A stretch of 63,999 nt of DNA, filler included, from Jimgerdemannia flammicorona (GCA_003990765.1; 3 parts of 3 records of this genome joined end to end with filler, not necessarily neighbours in it); one strand, 5' to 3'; positions 42,847-63,999 are shown, counted from the whole stretch's first letter. Numbers and translations: made by a program. The notes: generated by a model from the letters alone, not told the origin.

Positions 42847-43971
42847 CAGAAGCGAGAAAACACATAACACACTCCAAAGAAACGAATGCGACCCATCCTC
42901 CACGTCCTTGCTTTTGTGTTCCCGGCCTACACCGACGTGTGACCGTCAGTCGTCGTGACGTCGACTCCACCGTCAGAAATATGACGTATTGCTTTCTGTG
43001 GATTTGGTGTCCACACACCAACGTAATGACGAAAAAAAAAAAAAAAGGTTTCGAATCTAGGGGCGTTATGGAAACCTACGTCGTTCGTGTCTAGGTTTTT
43101 GAGTTATGAGCGACCGAAATTGTTCAGTTTTTACAACGGTGCTTCGTAAACACGTCTCGAACCTTCAATTAAAAATAAAAATAAAATTACCTTCTTTGCA
43201 ATTTGGGCATTTTCAAAACGATGTCAGCATCAACGAATCGCGAGTCTCCGTCTTCGGTGGCAACGATGCGAACCATGGCCACGGCGCGTTGGGAAGTCAT
43301 TGGGTATGTAAATTATCTACAGAATTTAACCCGAAGAGAGTGAGATTCATGTTTTAACACATACTGTCGTTGCTCTACCGGATGTAAAAATAAAAATAAA
43401 ACCGGACAAACCAAATGAGTGGTGATATCGCAGTCACTGAGACGTATATACACATAATTACCTACGTAAAACGTAATACACGGGCCATGGAGAAATGTAA
43501 ATAATTCTGCGCGCTGGGAAAGTGACGGGATTGCTGTTTTTCCAAAGAGCTCCTTGATCCGAACAAGCGAATGAATTCGGTCGGAACTATATATGACTCC
43601 TATACAGAAAGTAGCGCGACAATATTAAACGTCACTGGATTTAAAATTATGAAGTGACGATGTCGCGATGTGAAAGCCCTGCCACACACCACGATCTCTT
43701 AAACCGGCTCTTTACAGAAATCTAATTTAGGCGGTCCGATCAAGAGAACTTCAAGTTGTCGAAGGTGCACGTCGTCGTGTACAGGGTGCTCGTTGCACAA
43801 CAGCGGGGACGTGACCAACATCCGTTAAGACCTATTGTAACTGGAGGTCCTGGGCAATATGACAAGACGAATTCATACGAATGCAACCTGGAACATGAAA
43901 CAATACAGATGGTGCGACCTTATTTGCTACTATTGATTGTTTGTATTTGTAAAAACAAGTAAAAAATGTCT

Positions 43972-45174
43972 TCAGCTCGAATTAATCGCTGACGCCCCAA
44001 CAAACAACCCTATATCAATAGCAACATTGCATAGCATCGCCATCCGCAGGCCAACCTTATTCCTCATCAGGGCCATCATAGGACCCGTCTCAGATGCAAA
44101 AATAGCCAGGAAGATCCCAATGGGAAAGAGAAGAGGAAACCTGACATAGACTATACCGACAGCGATCTTCCTGGCATTGTTCGTTAGTGAAGCAATCCCG
44201 TGCATCCACCAGCTAGCCTGCGTGACCGGTTCAGGCGCGTCGTGAAACACCTTAGCAACGCCGACATCAGACGAATACATAAAAAGCAGAAATATCTGGC
44301 CTAAAATACTCCATGCCGTGGTGAACAAAGCAACGCCGAGTCTCACAGAGTAGACCGGGGTAAAATTCGTTCTCTTTGCGATATTGCGCACGCCATAGTA
44401 GTAAATGTACTCGCAAATAGCTTTGCCGGCGTACATATGAAGATGGCCGCGATCTGATATAGTCGTTTTCAAAGAGCACGCCAGGTTACGTGACAGAGAA
44501 TACTCAAAGTAGAGCTGCGCACAGATGACAAGGACGATGGCGATCGGTATCATCGTAACACCATAGCGGATCAAGCTGCCGTACAAAATAGAACGCGGCT
44601 CGTCCGGGTGGTCTCGCAGCGTGTGTGTGTCAATGTAGAAGAAAGGCACGATAGTGCAGAGCGCGACGATTATGCCGACGAACGGAATATGTCGTACGTT
44701 GGAGCGTCTCTCCTTGAACTGGGCGGTTGCAAAAACCCGATTCATATGAGCGCCGTAGCGTTTGAGCATGGAGACAACGGACGCGAGGATGGTTTGTGAT
44801 GTCATACGACCATGATGTCCCTCTTCGAGCGTGGAGAGGTTGGTCTCGAACGCATTCGCGTGCAGGGTTGATAGCACGGAGCCGTAACGTGTTCTCCGAT
44901 TTCCTCCGCTCTGGGCATCGTGGGCGAAGAACCCTCCGTCGTCTGGCTCTGGTGGGGTATCGGATCTTCGCCCGTGCTGCATCTCGGTTTTAGCACAAAA
45001 GTCGGTTGAAGTGTTTTTGAGCAGAACGTCAAGCCATTTTGCGGGGCTCCCACGTCCCCCACAAAAATAATCCATCAGGTCTGCAGGCCTATTGGCGCCG
45101 TGTAACAATGTACATCTGTAAATCAATGTCGTACACGCCATGCGACGATGAAAAGAGGCACGGAGCATGCTCAT
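43972..45174 (-). CDS. Hypothetical multi-pass membrane protein; exon boundaries uncertain
   Basis: 400-aa ORF with about 5 hydrophobic segments; no family recognised. Confidence 0.55.
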   Translation of the reverse strand: MSMLRASFHRRMACTTLIYRCTLLHGANRPADLMDYFCGGRGSPAKWLDVLLKNTSTDFCAKTEMQHGRRSDTPPEPDDGGFFAHDAQSGGNRRTRYGSVLSTLHANAFETNLSTLEEGHHGRMTSQTILASVVSMLKRYGAHMNRVFATAQFKERRSNVRHIPFVGIIVALCTIVPFFYIDTHTLRDHPDEPRSILYGSLIRYGVTMIPIAIVLVICAQLYFEYSLSRNLACSLKTTISDRGHLHMYAGKAICEYIYYYGVRNIAKRTNFTPVYSVRLGVALFTTAWSILGQIFLLFMYSSDVGVAKVFHDAPEPVTQASWWMHGIASLTNNARKIAVGIVYVRFPLLFPIGIFLAIFASETGPMMALMRNKVGLRMAMLCNVAIDIGLFVGASAINSS

Positions 45175-45680
45175 GAGCCGTGCGGTCGGACATCGAAACC
45201 ATACATGAGAATGAAGCGGCCCAACAAGGTAATTATGCGTGCCAAAGGTGCATGCAAAGTATGCCGTTTATGGATGGCGTGAGCGCGTCACGTCGACCTC
45301 GGCATGGTCGCCGCTTTGAGTCTGTGCCATATATTGTCATTTCTTGATGAATTCGCATCAATAGCGGTTTCTTCGACAGGTACTTTTCCTTTGGAATCTG
45401 TGCGCCCTTTAATGGATGTATTCAATAACAATTAGACATGGATCTTAATAACGGGATTTTTCTGCTTTCCTTGTCCTGTTTCGTTTTCGATGTGCCAGTT
45501 TTTGCCGCAATGTGCATTTATCAAAAGCTAAAGGCGATGCCCCCCCTGTATTGCATAAATTCCTTTATTGGGATACTTATAAAAGACAGCAGTTATAAAA
45601 ATTGCTAACAATATCGATAATGGGCTATAAATCGGGATAGTTATAAAAGATTTCTGACAATACTATTGTAGTCGAAGTTG

Positions 45681-47220
45681 TTACATAATATCGTTTGCAA
45701 TGACTGTAGCAACAGCCTTCGTGACCTGGTTGTAAAGCTCGCGCACATTTGTTTGATCGAGATTAATCTGAACTATGGTCATTTTATCCGTGCTACCCTC
45801 AGGATCGTCGTTCACAGTCCTTATGTTCTTCAGCATATGATCTGTAGACCCGTTTATTCTGCTGAATATAAATCGGATGTTTCTTGCCTTGATATCCTTG
45901 ACAATTTCAGACATGTGTCGGTTGCCTCCTGCCATGTCTTTCGGATGACTGTCGCCCGAAGTTCTTCTATAGCACCAAGGTCCGTGACCTGGTGTATCGG
46001 CAATAAATATCAAAACTTGACCAATTCATAGCAAGCGCACATGTAAGACCCCCAGCCACATCCTCTGCTCGTCACCACCTCCACTGGCCCTCTGCGCGGC
46101 AATCTTGTTCTTCACGAGTTCTACCGTCTCGGTGAAGTCGATACTGTCGAGATGACCAACGTTGCCGAAATCGCGATAAGCCACGAAAGAAACTCTGATC
46201 TTGAGTTCCTGGCTAGTGGTGCCCTTGATATCATCCTTGATCTTTTGTACGATGCCGTAGATTTGGTTCTTTCCAGCATCGATCCAGCATCCCATGGGTC
46301 CTGTACAATCCATGACGAAGCACAAATCCACCGCCAAGGGACCTGGGCCGGCTTTAGCGTCAAAGGCTAGATCGATGTTCCATCTCGCTTTTGCCACCTC
46401 TTCTGCACCGACCTTGTTCCATATGGCTTCTAGAGAAGTTAACCCAACGCCGTCGAAGTTGATCGCCTTCTCGGATATCACTGAGTTGTTTTCCGGTCTG
46501 TCGCCTTTTCCCTGACTGTCGAAAAGCTGCCTGAGGGCATCGGATAAAAGGTTGGGTCTCTGAGGTATGACGTAGTGCTGGAATACCGTCCCCACGCCAC
46601 CAGAGTTGAGACACCAATGACAAGAACATCTTTCTCTTCAGCTCTCTTCTGAACCTGTGCCAACCTCATGCCACGCTGATCGTAGCCATCGGTCAAGAAG
46701 AACATTAGCATCGGACCGTTGATGGCACCAGAATGTTCGACCATGATGAGATCGGTGGCGTAGAAATGGCATCCGAGATATAGCTGCTGCCGTCGCTTAA
46801 CTTTGATGCTTGCAGACTTGATAACACCATGTGCTTGGTAGCTGCATCCCATGCCTGTTCTTGGCCCTTAATAAGCCTCACTTCGGTTCCGAACGTCAGA
46901 ATGTTGAAATTGGAGATGCCGCACTCATCTAAAGCGGAACACATGCTGATGAGAGAATCAATGGCCCCCAACCCATGGACATCGTTCATGGACATGGATA
47001 CATCGAGCACCAGAGCCACGCGATAGTTCTTCTTCGGATAACCGATCATATTCTCATAAATTTTCAGGTCTTGGCCTCCTGTGCAGATCCAACGGAGCAC
47101 CCCGGGAATGCTCAGCCTCGACCCGCGCGTATCTCGCAAGGGCCTAGTCGCTTTGTTGTTGACGAAGACCACGTCCTCAAATAGTGATGTCAAGTCCGAG
47201 ATGATTCCCTGTAGTGTGAC
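45681..47220 (-). pseudogene. 3' part of a gene with two tandem vWA domains, frameshifted and cut at its 5' end by a TE relic
   Basis: MIDAS motifs LVLDVSMSM (midasin-like context GSRLSIPG...KIY) with FFLTDGY, and DLCFVMDCTGPM...FVAYRDF...ASGGGD with IFIADTPGHG; pieces lie in different frames. Confidence 0.7.
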
Positions 47221-47239
47221 TAACTTCAGCCATATACCC

Positions 47240-49260
47240 TGAACACTTTTGAAGAAAAAACTACACTACCTCTAGATCCAGTAATTATTGATCAGCAACC
47301 AGAATATGAAGTAGACCACATCCTGGATTATAAGGATCACTAATTTAGATAAGCTGCCAAGCCCATCTGGTACTACCTCATGAAATGGAAAGAATACCCC
47401 AAGTATGACATTATCTGGAAATAGAAAAAAGAAGACAATTTTTTGTCAAATGTAGAAGAAGCAGTAATCTGATACAGATATCTGATATAATAGAAATTCT
47501 AATGAAATTTTTGAAAGACAGTCATATCTCTGAATATTCAAAGTATAAATATTCTGAAATAATTCTATATAGATAATCTACTCTCAATATAAGTACCTAG
47601 TAATGATACTGAGAACAAACTAAGAACAAGATTGCCACTACTGTTCTTATAGCTATTGAATATTAATAAAATTCTATCAAACTATCTTTTGTTAATATAT
47701 AAATCTCTAAAGATTCAGATCCAAATGAAGTCCAATAATATCTTAGAAGGATCTAACATTTTCAGACTTTTTACTACTATTAAGAATTAAAGAAGTACTA
47801 TGAGATATATAGGATGTCTCATCTATTAACAAGTTACTCTCAGTACTGCTAAATAATGAGTCTGTCTTTTTATTGATAACTATATCTACATTATTACCAA
47901 AAGACTCTATGTTCTTTTCTGTACCTGACTCTAAGTCCTTGACTACTTTTATAAAGTATCTCCTAAGAATATTATTAATTTGAATAATGAATAATTGAGC
48001 AATATTGTCTTTCAAGTAGTCTAGTATACTACTCTTTAGTTTGATGAGTACTTAGAGTTTAGTTCTAAGTCTAATGAGTAGACTCAAATAAAGAAGAGAA
48101 GAATATAACAAATCATTATATACTTATAAGTTACTGCAAATTTCAATAAAAGTTTCTATAAAAATTCCTATGGAAATTTCTATGGAATTTCTAACTAGTA
48201 GTTATAGTTATCTAAAATAATAATATATATATATATATATCTAGTATACTATATTTAGTTATAGTCTCAAATATATATAAATACTCTCTATATTGAATAT
48301 ATTATAACCTCAGCTCTACTTTTTCCAAATATAAGAATAAAGTAGTATTCTTATCATAGAACTCTCAGATCTAACTTATTAATAATTTTGAGTCTGATCA
48401 ACTTAAGATATAAATATAGTACTTTCATTAGTACAAAAACCCAAAAGTAATATCTAGACTCTAATATAATAGGTAATTGAAACTCAGTAATTATATTTTT
48501 ACAAAAACTTAGAACTTAAGACCAATAGTCAGTTTATACCCTTATTTTACTATTTGGATTATTTCTACAAGTTGATACAGTAAGGCAGTCCTGATTATCT
48601 GGTATATCTGATATAGTATATAGCTAAATTATAGTAACTATATAATTTAGATAATAACTCTCTACTAAGTTATCACACTATATTAGTTTTAAAATCAGAG
48701 TCTGATTATTCTGAGTTCTTTTTAGATCTAAAAGTTTTAGAAGTCTGTTAGACTTTCTTAGTCCTTTTTGTCTCTCTAGCTAGTCTCCTTTAAACTATCT
48801 TATTGAGATACTTAGTATAGTATTGAGATACTATAAGAATACTATTCTCTTGAGATATATATAGTACTATTTTTAGTTTTGAGTATCAGATCTTTTCTTT
48901 GGAGGTTAGTCTTAATATTATAGTATATTTTTAATATATCTAATAATTTTAAACTTATTTATATATATGGAAAATATATACTTCTTTTCTGGATCTAATT
49001 ATAGTCTTTATATATATCTATTTTCTGAACAGACTATTTAGTATATAATAACTACAATATTATTAATTGTCATAGTTTATAATTTTACCCTTACTAGTTA
49101 ATGATATCAGAAAGACTAACAACATCAGTAGCAAATTCTAATATACTTAGTTCTATGATATTATTGATATTATAGATTATTTTAGTTTATAATATCAATA
49201 AAGTCATAAACTAATTTAGTCTGTGATGTCATTAACATCATTGACCTATTTTTAGGGCAT
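47240..49260. mobile_element. Heavily degraded retroelement relic(s), including a chromodomain remnant
   Basis: Plus strand 47270-47420 reads PVIIDQQPEYEVDHILDY...YYLMKWKEYPKYDIIW; the rest is very TpA-rich. Confidence 0.6.
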
Positions 49261-49374
49261 AACTATAGTGATGTCATAGGAGAAAAAAGTGTTCGAAAGG
49301 AAAGCCAGACTATGACCTTTATAGAAGTCTGTTTATATAAACGCCCTTACAAACTAATAAACAGACATGGAGAA

Positions 49375-52300
49375 TTACTCCTCAATCACATTCTGTCCCG
49401 TAGCCTTGGCCAGCATGCCCTCCAAACTCCTCAAAGTCCTTTTCATCTCCTCCAGCTGTGATTTCAGGTCTCCATCCTTCAAAGTCTTTTTCATCTCCAT
49501 CAGCTGTGCCTTCAGGTCTTCGATGGCGGGCTGAGTGGCAATTTCTGGTTGCGGGCGAAACTTCTCCATCCACTCGTTGACGGTGTCGGCAGTGGCATAG
49601 TAGTACATGTATGACGGGAACCAGTGGCTGTGCTGGCGTTGCGCTGGGGTCAACATGAACACCTGGTTTGAAGAACTTTGTGCGTCAGTCAAAAAGGCTA
49701 CGCCAGTCAGAAAACAAACGACAAAGAAAGAACGATGAGCACCTCAACTTCGGCAATCACGCTAGCCAATTGCCCCAGCCAAGCCTTGTGCCCAGTCTCC
49801 TTAGTATCCGAAATAGTGTCACCCATAAACGAGATGAGCAAGTTAAGTAGTAGGATACCTGTTTTAAAAGACACAAGTGAAATCGTAAGTCGGGGGGTTT
49901 TTTTTTTTTTTTTTTCGTTTGAACCTAAACCTTCTACTGGTCCTTCGTCAGACTTACCCATCAAGAAAAAAAACACCGCTTTAAGCCAATCAACGGCAGG
50001 TTTGCCATCAAACGGCGCGATGCTGGAATAGTCACTCGCGATGAAGAAGTAGGTGGATTTGATGGCGGTTAGGACGGATTGATTGTAACCATTAGGGCCT
50101 TTGTCGTTTTCCTCTGGGAAGGATTTTACAAGGTAGTATAGGGCGTGTGTAAAGCCCTGAAAGAAAAGGATAGTAAAAATTGAAATGGTAAGTTGAGGCT
50201 CATAGAAGACGGATATACATTGATTGAAAGGCATTCTTACAAAGACAAAGAAGGCTATCAAAACCAAGAGCCAGATGATCTTTTTGCAGATCTCGATGAC
50301 TGTGTAAATGAGAGGGCCAAACTTTTTGAACACGCGCATTTGCATCATCTGCGAGGTAGCAATAGTGTGAGCCACAATGTTACTTTGCAATCTCGAACGT
50401 TCGTAAATTGACGAAAAGCAGAAAGTACCAGCTGAAACCAAAGAAGGAGAATCGTGTAGCTGTGTAGCCACGAGAGATAGGTTTCGTATGTCGGAACGGT
50501 TCCCTGTGGAGATTGTAGTTAATTCGTTTGAGTGGACCATTCCATAGACAAGAAGGGAAGGGAATAGAGTCAAGTTCGGCGAGTTACCTGGATCAGCACA
50601 TATGTGCAGGTGGCAATCGGGAATGTAAAGGCGCATAGGTCGAGATAATTATAAACCTAAAAATTAAATAGCAAGGATGTTATATTGCTGGTAGTGCCAT
50701 ACGGTGGATATGTTAGCTAACGTGTTGGCTCGACGACAAAACTTACTGAAGAAACGTATGCTAGCGGTTCGGTCAATATCTGTCTGAACTCTTGAAGCAA
50801 GAAAAAGCATCCAATCGCAATTGAGGCACACATGATGGGGTTCACAGCAGCTGAGGAATTAGTAGCCAAGTGAATGCCGACAGAAACAAGAATGCAGTAG
50901 CACACGTAGAGGAACAAGTTCAGGTACACATAGTACTTTGCGTAAGCGTCCCTGTTAAAGGGAATGTCGCCGCGTAAGTTAGGATCTTCGGAAGCTCCCG
51001 AGGCACAAATAATAATAACAATATACATTGAACTTGCCATTTGAAAGCCAGTGTCGCCTCCATCACCACTGAATCGAACAATGGATTTCTACCAGAGAGA
51101 GCCTCTCTGGAGAATGGGCTTCTTGGCTTGATCCAAGTGTCCCAAAAACTCTGCTTTTCGGGAGGATAGATGCAAAAATCCGCAAGAGGAACTGTTGGAC
51201 AATACAATAACACAGTATTATTTGCAATCAATGTCTATCCTCGAATGTCGCAAGAGAGCCGTATGGATCAAATTTTCGGATAAAAGGGGCGCTTACCAAG
51301 ACAAACTCGCAACGGCAACCCCTTCTCATTCAACTTTTTTACCAGACTGATATTTTCCTCTTTTTTTCCACGGGAAAACGTCGACAAAGCAGAGAATATC
51401 GAAGAGTTCGCTAGGTCAAACAACGAGAGCGGTCTTTTAACCCTCAGTTGGTCATTCATGAAGATAGGTTTCAGATTTTTTGCAACAGTTGGGCCGAAAT
51501 GCGTAAAAACCTCGCCATTATCGTTCACAAAGTGTTCCATCTTCGACGGCAGATACGAGACGCGGTGGAGCATCTCCGTGACTAAAAACGGATAGGTGGA
51601 ACAGAGATCGCTGATACTGGCTGAAACGAGTACCATATACGCGGCGTCCGTATGTCCGCCTTTTTCGTTGTGGAATCGCTGAAAGTACTTCATCAGGGCG
51701 GTAACCATGTAGGTGTTCCTACACTTGATGGCTAACGCGAGTGAAGTCGATTCGGAGGGCAAGCGCGAATGATGACAGCGCGGAAGATAGGTATTTTTCT
51801 CGAGGATCTTCTCGGCTAGATTGTTTAACAGTGGATCCAAGTCGCTATTTTCCTGGATGAGCTTGCCGATCAGGGTGACGCCGCTACCATGCCTGATGAA
51901 GTTGTTGATTCTGCTGGCGTAGTAGCCACAGAATTCAACCACAGCCTCTAACTGTACGGCGCAGTTTGACTGCAGCATCGCCGCGAGAAGATCAACAGCC
52001 TCGAAGAGGTGATCGACGATAAAATGACTGCAACGGTCACCTGGGCCGGGAAGAGCGAGCTCGTATTGGATGTGCATGGAGAAAGGGTGATCGCTGAGGG
52101 TTTCCTTTCCTTCGGCACACCGTAACCGTAGCTTGACATCCCCGGTGACGTTGACGAGCACGACAGCGCTGATAAGACGCTGTCGCTGATTCTCTTTACG
52201 AAGTTTTTTTCCTTTGAAACTATTTGTGTCGTCAGTTTCGCTGTCCTCCGGGCTTTTGACAAAAGGAGTAGACCAAATGTACTGCAGCGAAAGTGGCGAG

Positions 52301-55300
52301 GTTTTCCAGACCTATGCCATCATATATGTCGTTAATATCGAATAAATATACTCAACAAACTGCTCGCAATGACTTTCAACAATAACCCCATAATAATAAC
52401 AATAATAAATAAAACAAAAATACCTGGATAGTGTTGCAGCCAATGACCAACAATCTCTTCCCATCCTCGAGCAAATACGCAGAAAGCAACTCGCCTCGGC
52501 CTCTTTGGTTGTCTATAGGACTTCTCATCCAAGGTTCGGGATATAACTCGACGTCAGGCTGTCCCCGCACTTTGATAAAAACGAAATGCTTCCAATACTT
52601 CAACTCAGAGTTGCTGAGCTCCTCAGCGACAGCTTTGATGTCAATGACGACATCCCCGTTCTTGTTTTGCATCGGGGTGGTATATATAAATGGCTCGTTA
52701 CTGTCATCATAATCCGGCGCTCCGCTGAGAAAGTAGCCCCCGCCCCAGAAACATAATAGTAATAAAGAGATCAGCCAACATAGCGGAGGGAAAAAAACAA
52801 GTCTTGGAGTTGCCATGGCTTACCTTGGATGTTCCGCAATACATCGAACATTTTTAGAAACTGTTGTTGATAGATTGACGGTTGAAATTGCGATGTCGAA
52901 TCCATCAATCGCAATGATCATCTCTCTGCTAAATATCACGCGTCCGAAAACCGGCACGGCGTCGCACAGTGTGGTTGCGATGACCTGGCAATCATTGTAG
53001 ACGTCTCTGATTTGTGCCTCGATAACCTCCGGCTTATTCTTATCGTCGCCATCGGCGCGGCGAATGAACGTCACGATTCGATCCTCAGTGTCTGCGAAGC
53101 CGACATAGTTGATGTCACCGTCTTTTTCCACGGTCTCGCCAAGTCGGAGACCCGTGCGAGCGTCGAAAACAGTCAGCTTGCCTCTGATTCCGGCGATGAC
53201 CGCGAGGTCGCCGGAGGTCGAGATGGCCATCTTGCTATAGCCATTGAAGGTAGATCCCATGTGCTTATAGCCCTCGGCGCTTTGAAGCCGCATTTTCATG
53301 TGACCCGATTGTACTGAGAAGATGGACGCAATGTTCTCGGACTCAAGTCGAATCATAGAGGAATTGGTTGCCGAGTTTATCATGATGTTGGTTGTGGTGT
53401 ATTTTGAGATAGGATCCCATACAGCGAAGTTCCGCAGGTCTATTCGATGGTCGAGCTTCCAAGTCGTTGCATCGAAGACATAGAGATAGTCGGTGGTCGA
53501 AAAGAGGAACTTCCCTGCTGTATCGAGAGGGAGCTGCTCTGGTCTCAAAGCTCTGGTGCGAAAGTTCTCGTTCACCTGTTGAACGACCGTGATTTGAAAG
53601 TCAGAATTGGCATCCTGGAGGGTAACGCCGGTGCTCTGTGTTGACGCTTGTATCTCAGCCAATTGAACTTCTGGGTGAACGAACTTTCCATATCCCGAGA
53701 GGTGACTGATGTATGGAAGCTCAATGATCTTCTGTGGTTTGGTTAACGTCGAGTCAATCGAGTAGACAGTGCATGGTAGCAATGCGGGATGAGAATCAGA
53801 GCTCTCCATGACATCCTTGCTTCGAGGAACTGGCTCCTCGTAGGCGACCAAAAAACGAGCGTCATCACGAATTGCAACAGAAATCGCAGCATGAGGAGTG
53901 TTGACGTTGAGGTTTGCGATGGCGTCAAATTTCCACTCGGTGTGCTTCTCCAGCGAGTCGTCGTGAACAAGCCAAACGGTGACACGCCCGTCTTGCCGTG
54001 ACAACGACACTAAGTAAACGCCGGTACCCGAGAGTGAAATATGATCGATGGGTGCTTGATGGGGCGTCTCGGTGATTTTGAGGTTGTGGTCCGAGGAGGT
54101 ACTCTCTTCTACTCCAACGTGATCTTCTATTTCCTTGTCTTTGGATCTTGGCCTCAACTCGACCCAATCAAAATGCTGCGAGAAAGATGCCGCCATCAGC
54201 GTTTGTCAGGCTCAACTTCCATATCAAGTGAAAACGTAGTCCCCACTTACCAGCCCATTATAATCATGCCTGTCGTGGCCCTTCCTTATACGTATGGTCA
54301 CTGCGCTCCACCCCAGTGTCGGTTCAAGTTTTAAAGGCTGCGGCATCGTCCACTCGAACCAATCTGAGCGTGAAAGCATGCATTTACCAAAACGTGTTAG
54401 AAAGCGAAAGGCTGCCCTGATGCAACGAAAATTGGAATGCTAAACTGGCGTACCTTGGCCCTTGTACTTTTTAAATTCTTCTGCCTTTACTGAAAGATTC
54501 AGTTGGCCGCGCCCGGATGGAGTTTGGTCCTGGAAATATTATTCAAGTTTGTGCGTCGTTGATCTAAGTTTCGTGCTGCAAATGCAAAATTTAAATTTGA
54601 CTTACTGGATGCAAGCCCTCCGCAGAGAAGTTTATTTCTATTTCATCTGGTTGAAGATACCCGGGAGATGTGGTGATTTTCATTGCAAGAAATTGTTGGA
54701 ATCAAACAGATCATTGAATACATACCTGTTCCCACAAAGCTATCTGCATCGAGCTTCATTCTCCATACCACGTCGTAGTTACCGGCGACAATATACCTCA
54801 ACCGACCGGCAAACTAATAATCAAACCAATGGCGACGTAAGTGGTTTTGGGCAAATCGATCATCAGCAAAGGAATGAGAAACCCCAATTCAGTCCCTACT
54901 GTACTTACGTCCCATCCACGCGCGCAATGCATATATACGACTTTCCCAAATTCGCTGTTGATATATCATGTGTACGTATGTCATTACACCTTTGACTCAT
55001 GCAAGTCTTTGTAAAGGATTCAATCTCCATACCTTTCGTGATGGTCTATAATTCGAAAATCGGGAATGTGATCTGCGTCCTCATCAGGTTGGCTGCTGCC
55101 GAACCCCGCACGCTTCTGTTTATATGCGGCCACCTGCTTGCATACGTCAAACTTCTCCGCGTCGGCGAAGAAAATCTTGTATGATTCCTTTGGTTCGAAC
55201 AGTGATAGAATGGCAGGATCCACCTGCGATACTCCGGACGCCGTGTCCTCTGTCGCGATCGCATGTGGAGGCAAGACTTGTTGGATTTTGCTCGCAGACT

Positions 55301-55447
55301 TCCGTTGGTGTTTCAACAACGGTCTCAACTCGACGTAGTCAAATGCCTGCAGAATCGAAATCGTAATCAGGATCGGAATCGGACGTAGGAATGAATATGC
55401 ACGTTCAAGTTTATCTCTTACCACCAAGGTGCCATTATCAATCGCAA

Positions 55448-55488
<41 letters not shown>

Positions 55489-56459
55489 AATGTTCCTCTT
55501 GTAATAGCCATTGGTGTTCAAAATAGCAATATCGACGTCGACACCTCCGTAACAAGGCTCAATGTAGACGTAATCCGAGAGAATATACTCAATCCAGCCT
55601 GCAGAGGATGACGTCATGTTGAGCGTGACGACAAGCGAGGCTCAAAATGATTGAATGGATATCTGCCTACCTTTGCCATTGTTATCTTTGAAAATATTCT
55701 CGTAGTAAAGATGGCTGATTTTTCCAGATTTGTTGGAAGGATCAGTCTATTACGAGCCATTGAGCATCCTTCGAGTAAGCATTTGAAATTTGGAACTGCA
55801 AAGAAGAAGCTGCAAGCGCGCGTACCTTTCTGTGAGGTTCGACTAAGAAAGTGAGTCCGCCGGGAAGGTCCGGAGCCGGACGATTGTCTGTATTCGTTTG
55901 AATCGATGCCACCAGCTGATAGGTACCCGGACGAACGCCGTGGATATATCCCTTGACCTGCCGTAAGAACTGTATTAGTTTCCAAGTCCAGGTTGCTAAA
56001 TAACCATGTGATAAGATCTGGAAAGGCAACTCACATATAACCAACAAGTTTCTTTCAAAAATACGACTTTACCCCCGCGTTCACTGCGACATGATGGGCA
56101 CGTGTGAGTGTGATGACGACACAAAATATCACGACAGTTCGGTGTGACAAGTAGATCAAACGCACCTGGTGGGATCGTCTTGCAAACTCCAGCTTCCGCC
56201 CTGAAAGTCATGGATGGCGATAGCGTTCGTGCCTGTATCGTCGCATTCGGCATTTGACTCGTAGTCGCCGGCGTAGATGCGGTAGAGCGGCGAAGGACAC
56301 ACATCCGCGACTGCGAAAGGCAAAGCCGTGTTTTTAAGAATATTATTGATTCGAGACAACGACCTGAGAGGAACGGGATAGCTACAAACACGACTCACCT
56401 GTCTCCTCAAGTTCGTGGACCTCCTCCTCTATGGGAATCACGACGTTGTTGTTTGACAT
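49375..56459 (-). CDS. Large multi-exon TRP-like cation channel with two N-terminal PP2-like domains and a WD40-like beta-propeller
   Basis: First exon ATG 56459 to GT donor 56398; two domains ending FDYVELRP and FDWVELRP; propeller-like exon 54196-52820; MEATLAFKW; RVFKKFGPLIYTV; GFTHALYYL; ILLLNLLISFMGDT; KAWLGQLASVIAEVE; C-terminal coiled coil. Confidence 0.8.
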
Positions 56460-56695
56460 CGTATCCGACGCTTTTTCGTTCTTGTACTGGGTGTCGAAAA
56501 GGATGGGCAGATGAAGAATAGAGGCATTTAAATATTTTTATTGTATATATATGGAGTGATTTGCCTCGGCTCATCCTATTTTGACGTTTTTTACTGTCTC
56601 CTGACAATCAAGACCAAACCGGGGTATGTACCCAGTCGATGATCTCCATATTCTAGATGCGGCTTGTACTTTCTAGGATTCTGCGGCGGACGGCG

Positions 56696-56938
56696 ACAAA
56701 CACGACTCACCTGTCTCCTCAAGTTCGTAGACCTCCTCCGCGATGTTGAACATGGAAATCACGACGTTGTTCGACATCGTATCCGACGCTTTTTTCGTTG
56801 TTGTACTGGGTGTCGAAAAGGATGAGTAGATCTTTAGATCTTTTTATTGAGACAAATTACTATATGGAATGATTTGCCTAGGCTCATCCTATTTTGACGC
56901 TCTTTACTGTTTTCTGACAATCGAAACCAAAACGGGGG
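56696..56938 (-). repeat. Tandem duplicate of the channel gene's first exon and upstream region (copy of ~56384-56625)
   Basis: Direct repeat with ~312-bp offset; ATG 56777 to donor GTGAGT at 56710. Confidence 0.85.
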
Positions 56939-57788
56939 TGGCGATGATCGTCATCAAAATTCAAGTAATTCCTTTCTCGGAGGTTCGAATGGGGAAAGGC
57001 TACGTCCAGACTGATATCACATTGCCAAGATCCTGTCAAGTCGGCTCAGCCTCCCGTCCATCCGTCTTCTGAGCTACAACGCGCCATTCATGGTCTGGGT
57101 CGTCCGTTCAAGGTCAAGTAAGCTATGAAGAGCTTGGCGATTAAACATTCCATTCGTGTGCCCGTTTTGCCGACCCGCAGAGGAATGACGAGGTCCCCTC
57201 CGTATTTCGCATGTTGACGCACATAACCCTTGAAACGTGTGGTGGGGCTGGGTGGGGCTGGGCACAAAACAATTAAATGCGACTGCTCGCATACCCCGGG
57301 GCTTGCCGTGTGGTCCCTGCCACTGTCTCGAGGAAAGCCCGCACCATTTCTCTAACTAAACCTACCGCCACGTTCCCCTCGTTATGATGAATAATGTCCG
57401 AGTTGGCATCACTTCAATATCCCAATGTCTTCTACGAAGGAAGCGAGGCTAAAATTGTCATCAGACATCCCAACACCGCCCTTAGAAGTAGCATCTTGGT
57501 CAAATGACATGACACATATACGAATTGCAATGTTTGAATGCGTAAGCAGCGAAAGCCGCACAAGGCAACTGCGCAGCCGCGCAGCCGCGAAAGTCGCACA
57601 AGGCTTGCGCCATACCACACAAACCACAAGCCACCAAAAAAAAAAAAAAAAAAAAAAAAAGAAAAAAAAACTGTGTTGATCAATAACAAGCAGACATTTC
57701 GGGAAATAATAACTATATATGTTATTTATGATTTGTATGGCTAATATAATGATCAATTATTAGTATATAATTATCTTAGTATACTGAT

Positions 57789-58063
57789 TAGTGCTCGGAA
57801 CGAATCGAATTGAATCGAATCAAGGTCGAAGTTCGATTCGAACCTAATTTTTCAAAATTCAATAACATATCCAAATTTAATGAATTTTAGCTGTTAAATG
57901 CACCTTATTATGGTGAATATAGCACAACAAAGAATATTAAATTTAGATGTGTTTTCATTGAGTTATTACATTTTAAAAGTTGGGATAAAATTTTTTGAAT
58001 CGAATCGGACCTCAATTCGAATGATCCCCAATTCGATTCGATTTGAATCGTTTGGGAGCACTA
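57789..58063. mobile_element. hAT-type MITE (275 bp)
   Basis: TIRs TAGTGCTC..AACGAATCGAA and its complement; subterminal GAATC repeats; exact 8-bp TSD ATACTGAT (57781-57788, 58064-58071). Confidence 0.9.
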
Positions 58064-60886
58064 ATACTGATATTCTATTTAATATATAAGCTTTTTCTTA
58101 TATTAGAAAATGATTAGTATAATAGATATCTTAATATTAAAGATTGATTACCATCAAGTCTAGAAGTAGTTATATTAATAATTATTATATTTTAAAAGAT
58201 AAAATTAGAAATATACTCTAAACTTATAAATAATAATATTTATATATTTAATACTATTATATAAATTTAACTATAATATTAAATAAAGAATATCTTTTAT
58301 ATATTATATATTAACTTTAACTTTATATATTATTTTTTATTTTATTTTTCTATAATATTTATATTAAAGTTACTTATAAAATTAATTTAAATATTACCAT
58401 AAGATATTTAAATAATTTAAATATATTTATATTAATTTACATATAATTTAAAATAAAGATATACTAAGTGTGTATAATAATATATCTACAGTTAATTAAT
58501 AGTAGTAATATTGTCTATTTTAAATAATTCTTTCTATTTTAATTTTATTTTTATCATTTTACTTCTATCTGTACTATCAGAAAAAGAATATACATATATC
58601 AATTATAATGTAAAAAAAGAACTATTAGGAGCAAAGCACCAATAAATAACAATTATGCAGTGAAAGAGAGAGAGAAATGGTCGACTGAATCGTGTAATAC
58701 CATGTAATGCAGCCAACCTGTAAAGGTTACAGAACTGCACAGTCCACTTTAGAGCAGAAGGCCAGTTCGAAGGTTACTCCCGAGTTGGGTTCAAACTGAC
58801 GCCCATTCTATGCATGTGCAGAACGCCAGGTCCGAAGGTCACACCATCTTGGGGATTCGAACTGACCGACTGACAGCACGTGGACCGTCACTCTACGACC
58901 TGGCCTAGAACAAAATTCCAAGTTTTGGCCAAAAGTTGTGCAATGGTTCTGAAGAAAAGAAGTGTTTCAGATGCAATTGTAGTGTGAAAAGCGAGACCAA
59001 TCCTAGTCGCTCGGTTTCGATAGAACATGTTCTCTGGCACTGCATTGATGTGAGTGAGTTTGTAAATGAAGCCGCTGATGTGCTTGTAGGCGGCGCCGAC
59101 GGGGTTGAAGAGAGATACGTCATTAATATAAAAGTGTGGTTTCTGCCGTGGAGGACACTATCGTCTTTTCGTGAATATGGTCGAGACGGACTTGCACCAC
59201 CCATCAGCGGCGTTCGAGCTCCACCTTTACGCATCGTCTCCATCGATCGTTTATTCCCTCCCCCCCAAAAAGCTTCCTTTGTTTTCAATGACGCACGTGT
59301 CTCAATAACTTATGACCTTCCAAACAGCAGCACGTCTCATCATATGCAGTAGAACGTTAATGTTTCCATCACTATGATCACTATGATGCCTTAAAATCAC
59401 TAAAACCTAGCTTTAGGCCTGTGGAAGAGGGGGCAACGCCGATGGTTTATCGAACGTCCTGACATACTATGATTCGGACGATTACGCGAGCATTACAAGT
59501 GTATATGGATGGGGTCTCTGCTGACGTGGCGTGTTTAAACGAACATTTCGATCACGATATTCGAAAACGAGCGTTCCTTGAATTGGCAGTGTCCCATGAA
59601 ATGTCTCGGCTTGCTTATCTGCGAGCAACGAGTCCATATTTTTTACGCAAGTGTTCCAACGAGACCTTCCTTGAGTTTTTGTGCTAGTTTTGAAACTGGT
59701 CACGCATATCATCCAAGGGGTCTGACGCGACGAAGCATGTGTTGATGCCAGTTCGGTAGGTTTCAAAGAACCCTCTGTTCTGGCATCATTTCCAAAATAA
59801 GACAAAAGAAAAAGCGTTTCTAACAAAAAAATATATAATATCTAATTATGGACAGCACGCATACATACATTCCAATATGGCGCGCGTCAAGTGTCAGCTA
59901 TCTGCTACTTATTTCTATTAACAGAAATTCCTCGGCACCGGTAATCTTAATAAACTTACAATAGTTGACAAGAATAAACATAATATAGAAGAAAACCGGG
60001 TTAAGGTTGCCCATGTCACGGATCCCTCAATGGCTGGGTCTGCGAATCGGACGAAAGAGCCGAATGCCTCACGGTAGGTGGCTGGACATTGGCGTCGGTG
60101 AACTGCTTGCGGTCGCCAAAACCGGCCGGACCGTTAGTTAATTCATTCATTTCCCTGTAGGGGCGCATTTGCACCGTGGAGGAAACATAAAGGAGGGAGA
60201 GGAAGCGCGAGAAGACGACTTGCGTTTCAGGGTGGAAGGGGACGACGATTACGCCCGGCTGAGAATTGATTGGTGGGGAGGTATGTGTATGTGAGTGGTC
60301 TGCGTAGTGATGTGATCGCAAAGTCTCACAATGGGGTTCTGTTCATCGGTGTATGTCAATTGAAAACAAGAGAAAGAAAGGGGAACGTTGGGGCGACGAA
60401 CAGGAACGCCGACTTAAGACTATAGTAGACTATATAGATCACATTATTGACATGGTGAAAAGGTCTAGCATCACTGGACTAAATAAAGCTTGATGTTATA
60501 ATAGTGATATAGGTTTTTAATATTATAACATTATAAGTAGTCTAGAAATTTATTTTAAAAAATTACTTAGTTTACAAAAGTTTCAATATTTTCTTTTTAC
60601 TAAAGCAAATCTAGATATTATTAAAGTCCAAGAAGTTGCAAATAGTTCTTTCTGAAAATTCAAGCTATTGAAGACTAGTAAATCCATCACTCCTCAAACT
60701 ATAGAAAAAATTAAAGTTTTGTCATTTTTGGTTCTTAAGTCTTCTCCTATGTAATTGAAACACTAAGAGTATCTCTATTACAATATTCACCTATTTGTTA
60801 GAGATTAATTTAAAGATATTACTTGCCCAAGATCAATCTATAATGATAATGAATAAAATATTAAAAGAATAAGATAAGAAAAAATT

Positions 60887-61300
60887 ATGGTAAACATTTT
60901 AGAAGTACAACAACATGTAAACAAAGAATTGCTAAATGAAATCAAAATACTGAAAAAGCAATTAGTCAATAAAGAAGAAAATCTTAAATAGGAAATTTGA
61001 AAGGTTGATCAAGAAGAGTAAAAATATAGAGTAAAAGACTACAAGTATTCTACTTTTAAAAAGTTGGATGATAAATGATTAGAGGAAGGTAAAGTCAGAA
61101 TAGCAATTAACTCTAATAAAACTAAAGAATGAGTCAAAGATTATAAAAGAGTTTATTTCAATAATATTATTATTGAAAAGATGTTAGAAAGTTTTTGTGA
61201 TTTATCCAAAGAATTATATATAATATGAGCTAAATATATTTCAAAATGAAGTGAATAAGGTTATTAAATTACTAGACAAAAGCAGCAAATTAAAGAGTAA
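60887..61300 (+). pseudogene. Decayed bacterial-style coiled-coil ORF, probably from a Mollicutes-related endobacterium
   Basis: One frame from ATG 60887 to TAA 61300 with five TGA at Trp-like positions and no TGG; other stops fit CAA/CAG>TAA/TAG; next ATG follows 3 nt later. Confidence 0.55.
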
Positions 61301-61303
61301 AAA

Positions 61304-61840
61304 ATGTCTAATAAGTAATTATAAAAAGACCTCAGAGATATTTGAAGTAAAGGTCAAACTTATATCGAAACTACAAATTATGCTTATAGATTAAAGTTAG
61401 AGAGTGACATCAAACACAAGAAAGAAAAAAAGAATTTACAAAATGATTTGCAGATAACTTATAAGTTATAAGTTATAGAAGTAAATGATTTAGTAAAGAA
61501 AATAGCAATATTAGAAAATGCTGGTAATGAACTTTTGAAAGTATTAGTAAAAATTCAAGATAAATTAAAGTAGAGATTAAAGGCAAATGAAAATTTGTAA
61601 AAAGAATTAAGATGACAAAAAGAGTTATTAACAAACTCTCAAAAGGAAACAAATGAGTAAAAAAGATTGAGAGAAAAAGCAGAATTCTAATTATACTTAA
61701 CCAACAAACCCTTACCTAAGTGACCAAATAAACTTAAAGAGTTGGGAAGAAAAATAAAAGTTAAACTTCAATATTTTGTAGAAAAAATTAAGTCTCAAAA
61801 GGAGACAATGATTGCTAAAATTGAAGTTCTGATTAAATAA
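61304..61840 (+). pseudogene. Decayed coiled-coil ORF, probably endobacterial
   Basis: Single frame, K/E/N-rich, ends NKPLPK...VEKIKSQKETMIAKIEVLIK*. Confidence 0.55.
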
Positions 61841-61990
61841 TTATAAAAGAACTACTTTATATAGTTTTAGAGTTAGAGAAATAAAATCAATAAGTGATAT
61901 GTTCTTTTTATCATAGCTTCAATAGGAAAAGTAGACCTGCTATTTATCAAATAAGAATGTATAGCAAATTAATAAACAAATTAGTTAATA

Positions 61991-63408
61991 ATGACTATAT
62001 ATATAAAGAGTATAAGAAAATTTTTGAAAATAATGAATTACCCAAGTGCAAGAGATATAGAAGATTATAAATAGATACTAATATTGATATTCATAGTAAC
62101 AAATATATCTGTAATTGTATTAAATATAAAGAGAAATTGAAGAAAGAAGAAAAAGAACTCTCTTCTTTATCTTGAACATTTGCTTTTTATGAATAGTAAG
62201 TAAATGCTCTTTAAGAATAATTGAAAGAGACTGAGTAAATATACCCCTTTCTCTGCTACCTTACCAGTTATAATGATTTGGTAGACAACTTTCTGAGTCT
62301 ACTTTCCATAATTATTACCCCCTCTACCTCAGGTTGATTTGCTACACCTATTGTAGGACAGTGGGAGAGAGGCAATGGTGATGAGTTGCCCCTTTATCAG
62401 TGTCAGATTAGTGTCTTCTCTACTTTTTCATGATTTCTGATACCTTCAGCTATGTCTGAAGTGCATTTGTTTTGGGGTGGTACCTTTTTCTTTTTGCCAT
62501 CACCAACAAGGTACTGTCTCAGTATATTATGAGCTATATAGAGAGTCAGCCAATCTTGGGTATCAAGTGCTCAGTGTAGGTTATCTGCAGGTTCTTGGTA
62601 TCTATAGTGGGGCCCTCTGACTTTGGCAAGCTTCTCAGTGAGCATAGTTCTGGTGTAGATAACTGCTTTTTGAGTGTTGTCAGGATAGGAGGGGAGATGG
62701 TCATCACAGATAAGAGGAAGGGTAATAATGGTAAACCAGTAGAATGCCAGGCTGAGGACAGTTATCAGGGCTAGAGCAAGTACTACTTTGGTGAGGTCTT
62801 TTGATTAGTACAGAGCAGTTAGTTAGTAGGTGTCACTCTCAACTTCTTTTGGTGATTCAGTGGATTGAGTCTCAGTTGTTAGAAGGGGTTGAGGGACCCA
62901 AGGCTACCCATTTTAGATATCTTGGCTATACTTAACTAAAACTAGAAGCTGATATAGTAATATGATCAAGGTCTATAGGCTTGAGTAGTGAGATATTGGG
63001 GGTCTTCTCTTGCCTCACATATAAGTTCTTTACTTATTTTGACTGAAAGAACCAGGCCCTACCCACCATAATATACTTTGATGAGGGGTTTTCTTTGTCT
63101 ATCATTCTCTTTGGTGTGGCAGAAGCTATTCTATTTGGCTCAGATATAGTTTTGTATATATATTGGAGTCTCGGGCATACACTTTCAGTCATTGGCATAT
63201 GGCTGAGTTCCCCCTGGTAGTAGAGAGAGCATGGTATATAGAATGAGGTATAGGCCAACATAGGCTCTACTATACCTAGCATGGTTGAGCTGCTGAATAA
63301 TAGCTAGTCTAGGTTAATAAGAGAACAGTGCTTGATGGGTGGTGGGAGAGGATTTTGACCTATATAGTCTAGGTTCTCTTCCAATAAAAATCCACAGGAC
63401 ATTGAGTC

Positions 63409-63476
<68 letters not shown>

Positions 63477-63733
63477 CTAAGTAAACAATCAAGATAAAAA
63501 GAGAAAAGGTGGCTAAGTTTTAAGAAAAATCTAAGAAGTGGAGCAAAAGACAAAAATAAGAATTATTGGGTAAAATAAAGAAGTTAAGAGCCAAAGTGAA
63601 AAGATTAAAAAAACTCACCCTGCAAGAGCTAATTAATGAAATCAATGAATTAAAAGCCTAATTATAACAGAATGGTCAATTAACTGCTCAAATTGAGGTT
63701 AAAAAGTGACCTTGATTGAAAATAAGAAAGTAA
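61991..63733 (+). pseudogene. Decayed Cys/coiled-coil ORF, probably endobacterial, split by a poly(A) retroposon
   Basis: 5' part 61991-62241 (...LPKC...IDTNID...CNC...AFYE...LKETE) continues after 63487 (IKIKREKVAKF...ELINEINELKA...TAQIEVKK-TGA-P-TGA-LKIRK*). Confidence 0.6.
62242..63474 (+). mobile_element. Truncated non-LTR (LINE-like) insertion with poly(A) tail
   Basis: AATAAA at 63383 and ~62-nt poly(A) at 63413-63474; TSD GACTGAGTAAATA (62229-62241) versus GACTAAGTAAACA (63475-63487). Confidence 0.75.
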
Positions 63734-63812
63734 TTCCAATATTATCAAATGTTCACTTTGTCTGATTTTGTTGCAGCATGCCTCAAATTTATGGATTGGC
63801 TAGTTGACCAAG

Positions 63813-63897
63813 TGGCCAGGGTGGCTCGGCCAGTTGGCTGTAAATTTAAGGCCGAGCCACCCTGGCCAGCCATTGGCCATATGGCCAGAGATCCCTA
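63813..63897. repeat. Perfect 19-bp inverted repeat and probable hAT-like transposon end
   Basis: TGGCCAGGGTGGCTCGGCC (63813-63831) pairs with 63850-63868; TGGCCA repeats end in ...GATCCCTA (TAGGGAT on the minus strand). Confidence 0.55.
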
Positions 63898-63999
63898 GTT
63901 TGAAGTGATGTCGTCACCCTCTGTGGCCAGAAATGCCGTTTTGTTATGATTCAAATTCGTCACCATTCAAAGATACGATCCACCAATTTGAGATTACTA

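Follow-up and report, generated by a model that had tools for sequence, protein, structure and literature searches.

A decayed Sola1-like transposon with TGA-coded tryptophan, and relatives bearing fungal genes, in the nuclear genome of Jimgerdemannia flammicorona

The window analyzed here, a 63,999-nucleotide stretch of Jimgerdemannia flammicorona DNA made of three contigs joined by N spacers, contains at positions 60416-63784 what is left of a Sola1-like DNA transposon of the cut-and-paste kind with terminal inverted repeats (TIRs), namely its 3' half, dead and decayed. With a probability of roughly 0.55, we favor the reading that this is a truncated copy of a transposon whose TGA-coded half is kept functional most likely in Mollicutes-related endobacteria (MRE), and which inserts into the nucleus of the fungal host. 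The combination of a bacterial-code transposase with intron-containing fungal genes suggests a transposon needing both organisms.

The remnant lies on contig C1514 (window 42847-63999) and comprises the end of a transposase gene, two passenger genes, one TIR and a later host retroposon (table 1). Missing are the left TIR, the left arm, ORF A and the first 443 transposase codons; no second TIR was found at up to 8 mismatches in 42847-60415. Two other J. flammicorona loci match the upstream stretch 60018-60386 at 71-72% identity and run on as host sequence with neither transposase nor TIR. A preliminary description of this DNA had recognized co-oriented, intronless, AT-rich relics, and such they are (23% GC, CpG observed/expected 0.05), with strong tblastn matches to intact proteins translated with table 4 (E values of 6e-57, 3e-39 and 5e-25). 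The first of these matches is to the intact transposase P0126 (66% identity), PF25273 being assigned on full-length copies.

Table 1. Features of the transposon remnant and adjoining DNA, in window coordinates.
Feature	Position	Strand	Basis
Low-copy gene-family DNA of the host, abutting transposase codon 444	60018..60414	.	Two host paralogs
DUF7869 (Sola1-like DDD) transposase 3' end, residues 444-589, dead	60416..60856	+	P0126, PF25273
Passenger gene 1, ~317 codons, coiled-coil-like, TGA=Trp, dead	60887..61840	+	P0269 alignment, E 3e-39
Passenger gene 2, 5' part: Cys-pair region and coiled coil	61843..62239	+	P0005 residues 1-132, E 5e-25
Retroposon target site duplication, left copy	62229..62239	+	Sequence; empty site in L002, L004, L005
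Host non-autonomous poly(A) retroposon, 1.17 kb and A62 tail	62240..63474	+	Later insertion
Retroposon target site duplication, right copy	63475..63485	+	11 bp, one mismatch (G>A) to left copy
Passenger gene 2, 3' part	63486..63733	+	P0005 residues 134-206, E 3e-19
Right terminal inverted repeat	63750..63784	+	3 mismatches in 25-nt core; 14-copy end alignment

Several boundaries drawn in the preliminary description have to be moved. Its upstream relic (approximately 60560-60880) is real, and is now seen to begin at 60416 and to be the C-terminal end of the transposase. The frames 60887-61300 and 61304-61840, which it had counted as two, are a single gene through which P0269 aligns without a break (60920-61834), and their 3-nt spacing is an artifact, the TAA at 61298 and the ATG at 61304 being products of decay. 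The 2-nt gap between the two passenger genes is the real operon-like spacing: gene 2 begins not at 61991 but 2 nt past the preceding stop, where its start codon has decayed to ATA. The block, formerly taken to end at 63733, runs on to a right TIR that had been overlooked; AAAT adjoins this TIR where sister copies have an ATAT target duplication. The splitting of the last frame by a poly(A) element with a target site duplication was correctly seen, and the frame is continuous in the uninterrupted copies L002, L004 and L005. The retroposon, with its A tail at 63413-63474, has 39 other full-length copies of 81-83% identity (40 candidates scored of 6108); a 5' inversion within it was rejected, colinear full-length copies being present. 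All four examples given earlier of TGA at tryptophan positions (60998, 61076, 61130 and the pair 63707/63713) stand opposite Trp in the intact homologs, as do the TGA codons at 61247 and 61343. The pair lies at the homolog termini, and 8 of 13 copies have TGA at its first site and 10 of 11 at its second. Over the whole window element, TGA=Trp applies to 7 of the 13 in-frame TGA, the other six facing R, C, Q, K/L, S or a gap.

The window copy, far from a one-off insertion, belongs to a family with at least 151 transposase copies in the genome. A 29-nt end motif has 205 genomic matches (none for the reversed control), and ATAT adjoins 80 of 83 distinct ends in J. flammicorona and 23 of 27 in metagenomes. 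Outward pairs of TIRs, each about 35 bp, bound L061, L062, L136, L140, L144, L145 and L165. The flanks of the 7.2-kb L144 unit lie side by side, overlapping by 4 bp, in three distinct paralogous copies of the repeat (L019, L083=L147 and L166), and those of L136 and L145 fit within 8-10 bp, no informative paralog being found for the other four of the seven elements compared. Whole 7-9 kb units have thus inserted into nuclear repeats (one exact and two approximate cases of seven), and the ideas of a one-ended element, or of paired TIRs as two unrelated right ends, were dropped after this comparison. The ATAT ends and the L144 overlap amount to a 4-bp duplication of an AWWT target, the window copy showing AAAT.

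These data bear on passive, NUMT-like capture of endosymbiont DNA at double-strand breaks, with a bacterial transposon included by chance. The window copy alone, joined to host DNA without its left end, looks so, and copies in the nucleus are dead, with neutral change at the tips. Nuclear insertions of symbiont DNA of the NUMT or Wolbachia type are likewise dead, decaying and later struck by host retroelements. Unlike them, the units described here have precise TIR ends and target duplications in place of random breakpoints, no bacterial chromosome DNA outside the TIRs of the loci profiled, and spliced fungal genes inside. We consider passive capture very improbable, and the empty sites already largely refute it.

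The transposase (~585 aa) carries the domain PF25273 (DUF7869). Its catalytic Asp residues in P0126 are D311, D390 and D432, with a spacing of D-78-D-41-D, and almost every copy has at these positions either D or the N that decay makes of it. Residues 264-465 of the model match the cores of integrase and Mos1 mariner (Z 8.5-8.8, rmsd 3.1-3.8), which places the DDD triad in an RNase H-like fold; Foldseek by itself reached only E 0.006. We take the spacing to agree with that of Sola1, where the last two Asp lie about 40 residues apart, and DUF7869 to be probably Sola1, the Pfam name of the domain being only DUF7869. Sola1 DNA transposons, said to have been described by Bao et al. in 2009, resemble the present family in TIR length, 4-bp AWWT-type target, transposase size and catalytic core. 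What sets our elements apart is the TGA=Trp transposase, the near-strict ATAT, the operon-like bacterial-type passengers on the right and the spliced fungal genes on the left. Excerpts of published texts name the AWWT target as a Sola1 hallmark (PMC3845634) and record Sola1 in Rhizophagus (PMC5751038).

The code of the transposase was read codon by codon in 60 of the at least 151 copies. At W133, 48 copies have 39 TGA, 9 TAA and neither TGG nor TAG; at W308 we counted 49 TGA, 6 TAA and 3 TGG; the control site W212 has 18 TGG, 17 TAG, 8 TGA and 7 TAA. No copy covering all five Trp sites is free of TGA and TAA. Intact metagenome transposases contain no TAA or TAG, and two of them (L118 and L129) differ by TGG/TGA at W212 and W399. 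This census shows that TGA=Trp was inherited and not made by decay, the family having evolved under genetic code 4. A host that itself reads TGA as Trp was rejected, since long host-type frames use TGG only (8/8 and 9/9 Trp) and the host code is therefore standard. Transversion sites common to at least three copies number 108 of 226 at four-fold positions vs. 92 of 1117 at non-degenerate ones, and singletons 39 of 226 vs. 271 of 1117, which shows that the copies diverged under purifying selection.

We give scarcely any credence to an ordinary standard-code fungal Sola1 with TGA arising from G>A decay, or to contamination of the assembly by an endosymbiont. Decay does create TGA, as the preliminary description had cautioned: about half of those across the transposase copies derive from Arg codons (137 R, 134 W), with CpC>TpC decay near 20%, and an excerpt of PMC10507103 reports MRE contigs contaminating Glomeromycotina assemblies. 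Both proposals are refuted by the codon census, in which W133 and W308 depart from the W212 control and undecayed metagenome copies have TGA and no other stops, and by the empty sites, which place insertions in host repeats. The earlier judgment that this DNA is nuclear agrees with the host retroposon that has struck the window copy, with decay of the methylation type, with the presence of host genes on the contig and with an assembly that shows no bacterial rpoB over the cut-off. The absence of rpoB also weighs against the reading we favor, under which a living symbiont in this host is conjectural.

MRE use genetic code 4 (TGA=Trp). We infer an MRE source from this code, a sister transposase in Candidatus Moeniiplasma and the bacterial-type cargo. 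The Moeniiplasma protein (MCE8163216, 329 aa, known here as protein only) is 48% identical to the transposase and falls in a sister clade in a quick tree (SH-aLRT 99); it is the sole named MRE link. The J. flammicorona clade is unresolved in that tree, from which we accordingly take neither a count of invasions nor an ancient direction of transfer. The other named close matches are Glomeromycotina assemblies, and among the remoter DUF7869 relatives are proteins of unrelated bacteria (a Desulfobulbaceae MAG), which leaves it conjectural that the transposase made a round trip from fungus to bacterium to fungus. MRE carry many transposases, according to an excerpt of PMC4916391. Of the origin first proposed, an MRE-like source remains the best inference, with TGA=Trp ancestral; a single passive bacterial or phage insertion is not supported. 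No virion, replication or tyrosine-recombinase genes and no phage-family matches accompany an integration made by a DDE enzyme with TIRs. The window passenger proteins had nothing over the cut-off in Pfam or PHROGs (best PHROGs E 0.008, on the coiled coil), and phages searched with passenger gene 2, like plasmids searched with the transposase, gave no match. Exact back-translated patterns, which make weak negatives, found no confirmed relative and no TIR-bounded copy in an MRE chromosome in two GTDB scans (P0005, P0126) and nothing in four IMG/VR scans (TIR, P0006, alignment A3, P0269).

A TGA=Trp source other than MRE, such as another Mollicute, its phage or plasmid, or a mitochondrial replicon, would act by the same mechanism, and we hold it to be improbable. 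The passenger genes were first described as resembling MRE hypothetical proteins, a likeness the searches do not bear out: no MRE name appears among the 120 homologs listed of 192 for passenger gene 2 (L002 copy) or the 34 of 34 for the N-terminal part of passenger gene 1, all metagenomic and without name. No MRE housekeeping genes were seen outside the TIR on 25 metagenome contigs of 1-6 kb, and the distant bacterial DUF7869 relatives could also be read this way. Against such a source stand Moeniiplasma as the nearest named bacterial homolog, the Glomeromycotina matches, a cargo that is not of mitochondrial type (TGA-coded uridine kinase, HIT and LRR proteins) and the empty phage, plasmid and IMG/VR searches. 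The HIT and uridine-kinase cargo had no exact match in a protein collection, and the ESM Atlas clusters found for P0005 (0.91-0.92, unnamed, without taxa, low recognition) and for ORF A (scores under 0.8 only) were not used as evidence.

Complete copies carry a left arm, 2.6-5.2 kb of standard-code fungal genes, which is bounded on one side by the left TIR and on the other by a hairpin preceding ORF A. Where an outward TIR is present upstream (13/13 copies) it sits at that distance, in loci partly picked by perfect TIR matches, which favors copies with unique arms. Unmethylated-type DNA lies upstream of ORF A in 29 of 36 copies, and beyond the right TIR in 12 of 24 (Fisher p 0.02). In the reading we favor, the spliced arm genes stay unmethylated and appear expressed. 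Arms of L140, L142 and L134 contain Crinkler domains (PF20147), and those of L146 and L118 a spliced AAA-ATPase_like gene. L146 and L118, an intact copy from a soil metagenome, have their arm in common (87.5% over 1.7 kb), together with a GT-AG intron and the junction, with a dN/dS of 0.34 in exons and 0.14 in the transposase; in this one arm pair, both halves of the unit are under selection, each in a different code. For the L136 and L140 arms, J. flammicorona yielded no more than partial paralogs (best 74% over ~0.9 kb), apart from one sister arm reaching 88%. Host gene DNA therefore moves inside the TIRs, as shown by empty sites outside arm-bearing units, a shared arm and a spliced gene. 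Pack-MULE and Pack-CACTA elements likewise move host gene DNA between TIRs as a unit, and Crinkler genes can be transposon-associated. Our elements are like them in mostly unique arms and Crinkler cargo, and unlike them in having arms of 2.6-5.2 kb that invariably occupy the left side and change over at one fixed hairpin, and in bearing a transposase not fully translatable in the host code.

Near-identical cores with different arms (L154/L161, L074/L144) and L076, an 873-bp TIR-bounded unit without bacterial-type DNA, point to mobilization inside the nucleus, which a host-made helper explains equally well. Repeated import from MRE, followed by nuclear spread and arming through a helper translated by the host (from an unsampled TGG-recoded copy, a shortened product begun at the Met that follows W133, or TGA read-through or editing), is accordingly a serious alternative, if a doubtful one. 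Two JGI proteins, P0129 and P0130, represent clusters with 4 and 33 members, of which the full-length ones listed come from contigs as long as 84 kb and the fragments from contigs as long as 236 kb; they begin just past W133, contain the later Trp sites and fit a shortened standard-code frame; three J. flammicorona copies have TGG at W308; and ORF A, Trp-free in the intact copy, ends in a basic cluster that we presume resembles a nuclear-localization signal. However, W133 is TGG or TAG in none of 48 copies and no TGA-free full-length copy was found, the shortened form would lose the N-terminal Cys/His region, P0129 and P0130 are known here only as proteins, and the host code is standard. Many lineages would, besides, still have to pass through a TGA=Trp phase to account for the purifying selection on internal branches.

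Returning to the MRE-maintained transposon, we put forward that the transposase and right-arm passengers would be maintained where TGA is translated as Trp, the likeliest setting being MRE within the cytoplasm of the fungus. The transposase, presumably made in the bacterium, would bind the ~35-bp TIRs, excise the unit and insert it at ATAT, host nucleus included, the protein or a protein-DNA complex probably passing to the nucleus. Nuclear insertions would come from many diverged source elements; there the TGA-coded half would be untranslatable, become methylated and decay by C>T. The left arm would be exchanged, between TIR and hairpin, for 3-5 kb of fungal DNA. More tentatively, and with a lower probability of being right, the element might be a cross-kingdom shuttle whose genome is written in two codes, the transposase being produced in the endobacterium alone and the arm genes in the nucleus alone, while the intact unit cycles from nucleus to bacterium and back. 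The L146/L118 unit, its dual-code selection and the lack in this genome of a close parental locus for either arm searched are the trace such a cycle would leave.

No description of such an element was found in searches of openly licensed PMC and bioRxiv papers. Host-to-MRE gene transfer is reported in Mucoromycota, and the excerpt available describes MRE-host transfers as single genes and names no vehicle (PMC10507103). Such transfers share with our elements AT-rich, intronless, bacterial-code genes in a fungal nucleus, LRR-type cargo and traffic between symbiont and host; unlike them, the elements here carry host genes and arrived by transposase-type insertion with target duplications, on at least 151 occasions and out of many lineages under selection. 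A practical warning concerns annotation: the Glomeromycotina gene models P0134 and P0135 omit exactly the stretches holding the TGA Trp sites, as if spliced around these codons. The bacterial-code transposon, which inserts into the nuclear genome by its own chemistry and has host genes aboard, is a candidate vehicle for gene exchange between MRE and fungi, and its Crinkler-type cargo belongs to a rapidly diversifying, effector-type family. Two questions become testable, the movement of DNA between MRE and host and the spread and diversification of Crinkler-type genes in these fungi. If the shuttle is real, effector-type genes would travel with it from one fungal lineage to another, because MRE switch hosts.

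The block at 60416-63784 is a truncated relic of a transposon, since its left side is joined at about 60415 to host gene-family sequence and no left end of the element was found anywhere on its contig, RBNJ01001514.1. The window consists of three contigs with N spacers at 21325-21424 and 42747-42846; the feature is contiguous only with 42847-63999, and 63999 is a contig end. Block 60500-62240 has 23% GC and a CpG o/e of 0.05, versus 46% and 1.07 just upstream. The preliminary description treated 60887-61300 and 61304-61840 as separate ORFs, but intact homologs read with table 4 (TGA=Trp) align across both as a single passenger gene. Its proposal that the last ORF is split by a poly(A)-tailed element with a target-site duplication holds: the insertion is a host retroposon present in many copies; of 6108 candidates 40 were scored, and 39 of these proved to be further full-length copies. 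It belongs to a discrete family of non-coding poly(A) elements whose candidate copies number in the thousands.

Features of the window copy, its contig and ORF A of soil-metagenome contig L118 (window positions unless a locus is named)
Feature	Position	Strand	Remark
Transposase residues 444-589	60416-60853		66% identity to intact table-4 homolog
Passenger gene 1	60887-61840		Single gene, by intact table-4 homologs
Passenger gene 2	61843-63733		Begins 2 nt after passenger gene 1; interrupted by poly(A) element
Poly(A) element in passenger gene 2	62240-63474		1.17 kb; 11-bp target duplication
Right inverted-repeat end of block	63750-63784
Host-type exons	46026-54205	minus	VWA domain (PF25106) near 46.0-46.6 kb
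Long multi-exon host-type gene	49.4-54.2 kb	minus	Weak WD40 match; membrane-like C-terminal exons
ORF A, 112 aa	L118:3980-4318		No Trp codon in intact copy

Elsewhere on the contig lies host-type sequence whose long ORFs read in the standard code; WD40-like and VWA-domain exons are among them. Within 57900-58620, a CpG-free stretch of about 12% GC (58060-58620) is probably a heavily decayed element; the short repeat beside it also interrupts the transposase gene of another copy, L028. A small GC-rich repeat at 63780-63900, with perfect 19-bp inverted arms (63813-63831 and 63850-63868), adjoins the right terminal inverted repeat (TIR), and the left arm of copy L061 contains sequence related to it.

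Searching the genome with the window block gave 58 matches. A 180-residue transposase piece occurs in at least 151 genome places (387 candidates, 150 scored), and a 29-nt end motif was counted 205 times, against none for its reversed control. The transposase domain is Pfam DUF7869. In an AlphaFold model (mean pLDDT 66), residues 264-465 match the catalytic cores of retroviral integrase and Mos1 mariner with Z of 8.5-8.8; Foldseek alone gave only E 0.006. Three aspartates are conserved across copies of this TIR/DDD element, and ATAT adjoins 80 of 83 distinct genomic ends and 23 of 27 soil-metagenome contig ends. PMC3845634 names an AWWT target as the hallmark of Sola1, and PMC5751038 records Sola1 in Rhizophagus.

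Seven loci (L061, L062, L136, L140, L144, L145 and L165) hold complete units, 6-9 kb long and with an outward TIR at each end, in the order left TIR, left arm, hairpin, 112-aa ORF A, transposase, AT-rich passengers and right TIR. Empty-site comparison had an informative paralog for three of the seven and none for four. The outer flanks of L144 map side by side and overlap by 4 bp in a nuclear repeat, as seen in three distinct copies of it, and for L136 and L145 the fit is to within 8-10 bp. Therefore, whole units, arm included, entered nuclear DNA by transposition, duplicating ATAT within nuclear repeats; passive capture of endosymbiont DNA in the nucleus is very improbable.

The genetic code of the transposase needs to be separated from decay, as G>A change also yields TGA: across copies, TGA stands opposite Arg 137 times and opposite Trp 134 times, with CpC>TpC decay at close to 20%. 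In the window copy, all TGA codons cited at Trp-like positions in the preliminary description do align to Trp, but this applies to only 7 of the 13 in frame, the other six aligning elsewhere. A Trp-site census of 60 copies with at least 250 codons distinguishes decay from inheritance. The ancestrally TGG site W212 reads TGG in 18 copies, TAG in 17, TGA in 8 and TAA in 7, while W133 reads TGA in 39 and TAA in 9, never TGG or TAG, and W308 reads TGA in 49, TAA in 6 and TGG in 3. No copy free of TGA and TAA was found among those covering all five Trp sites. In undecayed metagenome copies the table-4 frames are open; the 585-aa transposase of L118 has three TGA and two TGG, and L129 reads TGA where L118 reads TGG. 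Passenger genes share this usage, with 120 TGA versus 8 TGG at the Trp sites of one cargo.

Selection was gauged from transversions, a class of change that does not arise by decay. Sites common to at least three copies number 108/226 four-fold versus 92/1117 non-degenerate, and singleton sites 39/226 versus 271/1117. The lineages therefore diverged under translation and selection of a TGA-bearing gene, each nuclear copy then drifting neutrally. The median four-fold transversion distance between copies is 0.16; the cores of one small cluster are nearly identical. That the TGA usage is a product of decay alone, or that the element is assembly contamination, is barely credible. The host code is standard, because the long arm ORFs use only TGG.

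We favor, at slightly better than even odds (about 0.55), a scenario in which the transposase would be synthesised in endobacteria and, as protein or protein-DNA complex, would reach and act on nuclear DNA. The main rival is a helper transposase translated by the host: the JGI proteins P0129 and P0130 begin just after W133 and, judged by protein sequence, could be such a form. We regard this rival as unlikely. The Ambispora gene models P0134 and P0135 omit stretches with W85 and/or W312, as if introns had been predicted over in-frame TGA.

The bacterial source was sought among homologs. The nearest named one is a protein of Ca. Moeniiplasma glomeromycotorum, a Mollicutes-related endobacterium (MRE), 329 aa long and 48% identical, in a sister clade to the group of J. 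flammicorona, metagenome and Glomeromycotina-assembly sequences (quick tree, SH-aLRT 99). Among remoter DUF7869 relatives are proteins from bacteria of Desulfobulbaceae type. The host's gene families and homologs suggest that it belongs to Mucoromycota. In metagenome contigs L115, L116 and L127, genes coded with TGA next to this TIR include those for a uridine kinase, an HIT protein and an LRR protein. The HIT protein is also present in at least 41 genomic loci, and the LRR protein has a C-terminal membrane anchor. PMC4916391 describes transposases as abundant in MRE, and PMC10507103 and PMC10386755 describe gene exchange between MRE and hosts. The homologs listed for the window passenger proteins (120 of 192 and 34 of 34) are all unnamed, bacterial chromosomes yielded no copy bounded by TIRs (metagenome contigs, and GTDB scans with exact back-translated patterns, which are weak), and no bacterial rpoB exceeded the cut-off in the assembly (four weak matches); for these reasons we only infer an MRE source. 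A source other than MRE with the table-4 code is improbable.

As for the left arms, DNA upstream of ORF A has host-like GC and no CpG loss in 29 of 36 copies; beyond the right TIR this holds for 12 of 24 (p 0.02), in a sample biased toward perfect TIRs. A left TIR was detectable in 13 copies, always 2.6-5.2 kb from ORF A; compact left ends (190-240 bp) were encountered in three metagenome contigs and nowhere else. Remnants of right-end passenger genes, 50-250 bp long, are frequent at left ends (L143:311-460; L138:278-525; L061:6690-6843), which may thus be right ends put to new use. Pfam matched 5 of 19 ORFs scanned, one being a host Rpb2 control. Arm genes include Crinkler N-terminal domains (L140, L142 and metagenome L134) and an AAA-ATPase-like gene. 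Arms differ between near-identical cores, the switch point being the hairpin, and no close parent locus was found in the genome for the two arms searched. The arms of L146 and metagenome L118 are 87.5% identical over 1.7 kb and share a GT-AG intron and the hairpin junction; dN/dS is 0.34 for arm exons (standard code) and 0.14 for the transposase (table 4), so spliced fungal cargo is under selection in this pair. That armed elements go back into the bacterium, as a true shuttle, is conceivable if doubtful. An 873-bp unit (L076:452-1324), with a TIR at each end, ATAT on both flanks and no visible AT-rich bacterial-type DNA, suggests non-autonomous derivatives built from host DNA.

Lacking a Trp codon in the intact copy, ORF A reads identically in both codes; its C-terminal lysine/arginine cluster resembles a nuclear-localisation signal. 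Two similar hairpins with 7-bp arms and a 6-bp spacer flank it (L118:3900-3965 and 4324-4343), and the L118 transposase start is immediately preceded by a TIR-like motif. Three copies (L030, L140 and L142) have ORF A inverted, and four (L029, L062, L155 and L178) have inverted passenger blocks. The ORF A region may be an invertible cassette, and both kinds of inversion could possibly stem from site-specific recombination by MRE XerC/D-type enzymes, which PMC10507103 places in most MRE. In two undecayed metagenome contigs a pair of TIRs meet at their outer ends, with a single ATAT between them (L113:1480-1551) or about 16 bp apart (L130:1010-1100). Such a pair marks either an excised element that has closed into a circle or an element that landed in the target duplication of another.

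Elements of Sola1 type, Pack-type capture and gene transfer between MRE and hosts are all known already. In mainly open-access literature we found no description of a bacterial-code transposon that carries host genes and inserts into the nucleus of a fungus. The interest of the element lies in its being a testable candidate vehicle for gene traffic between symbiont and host.
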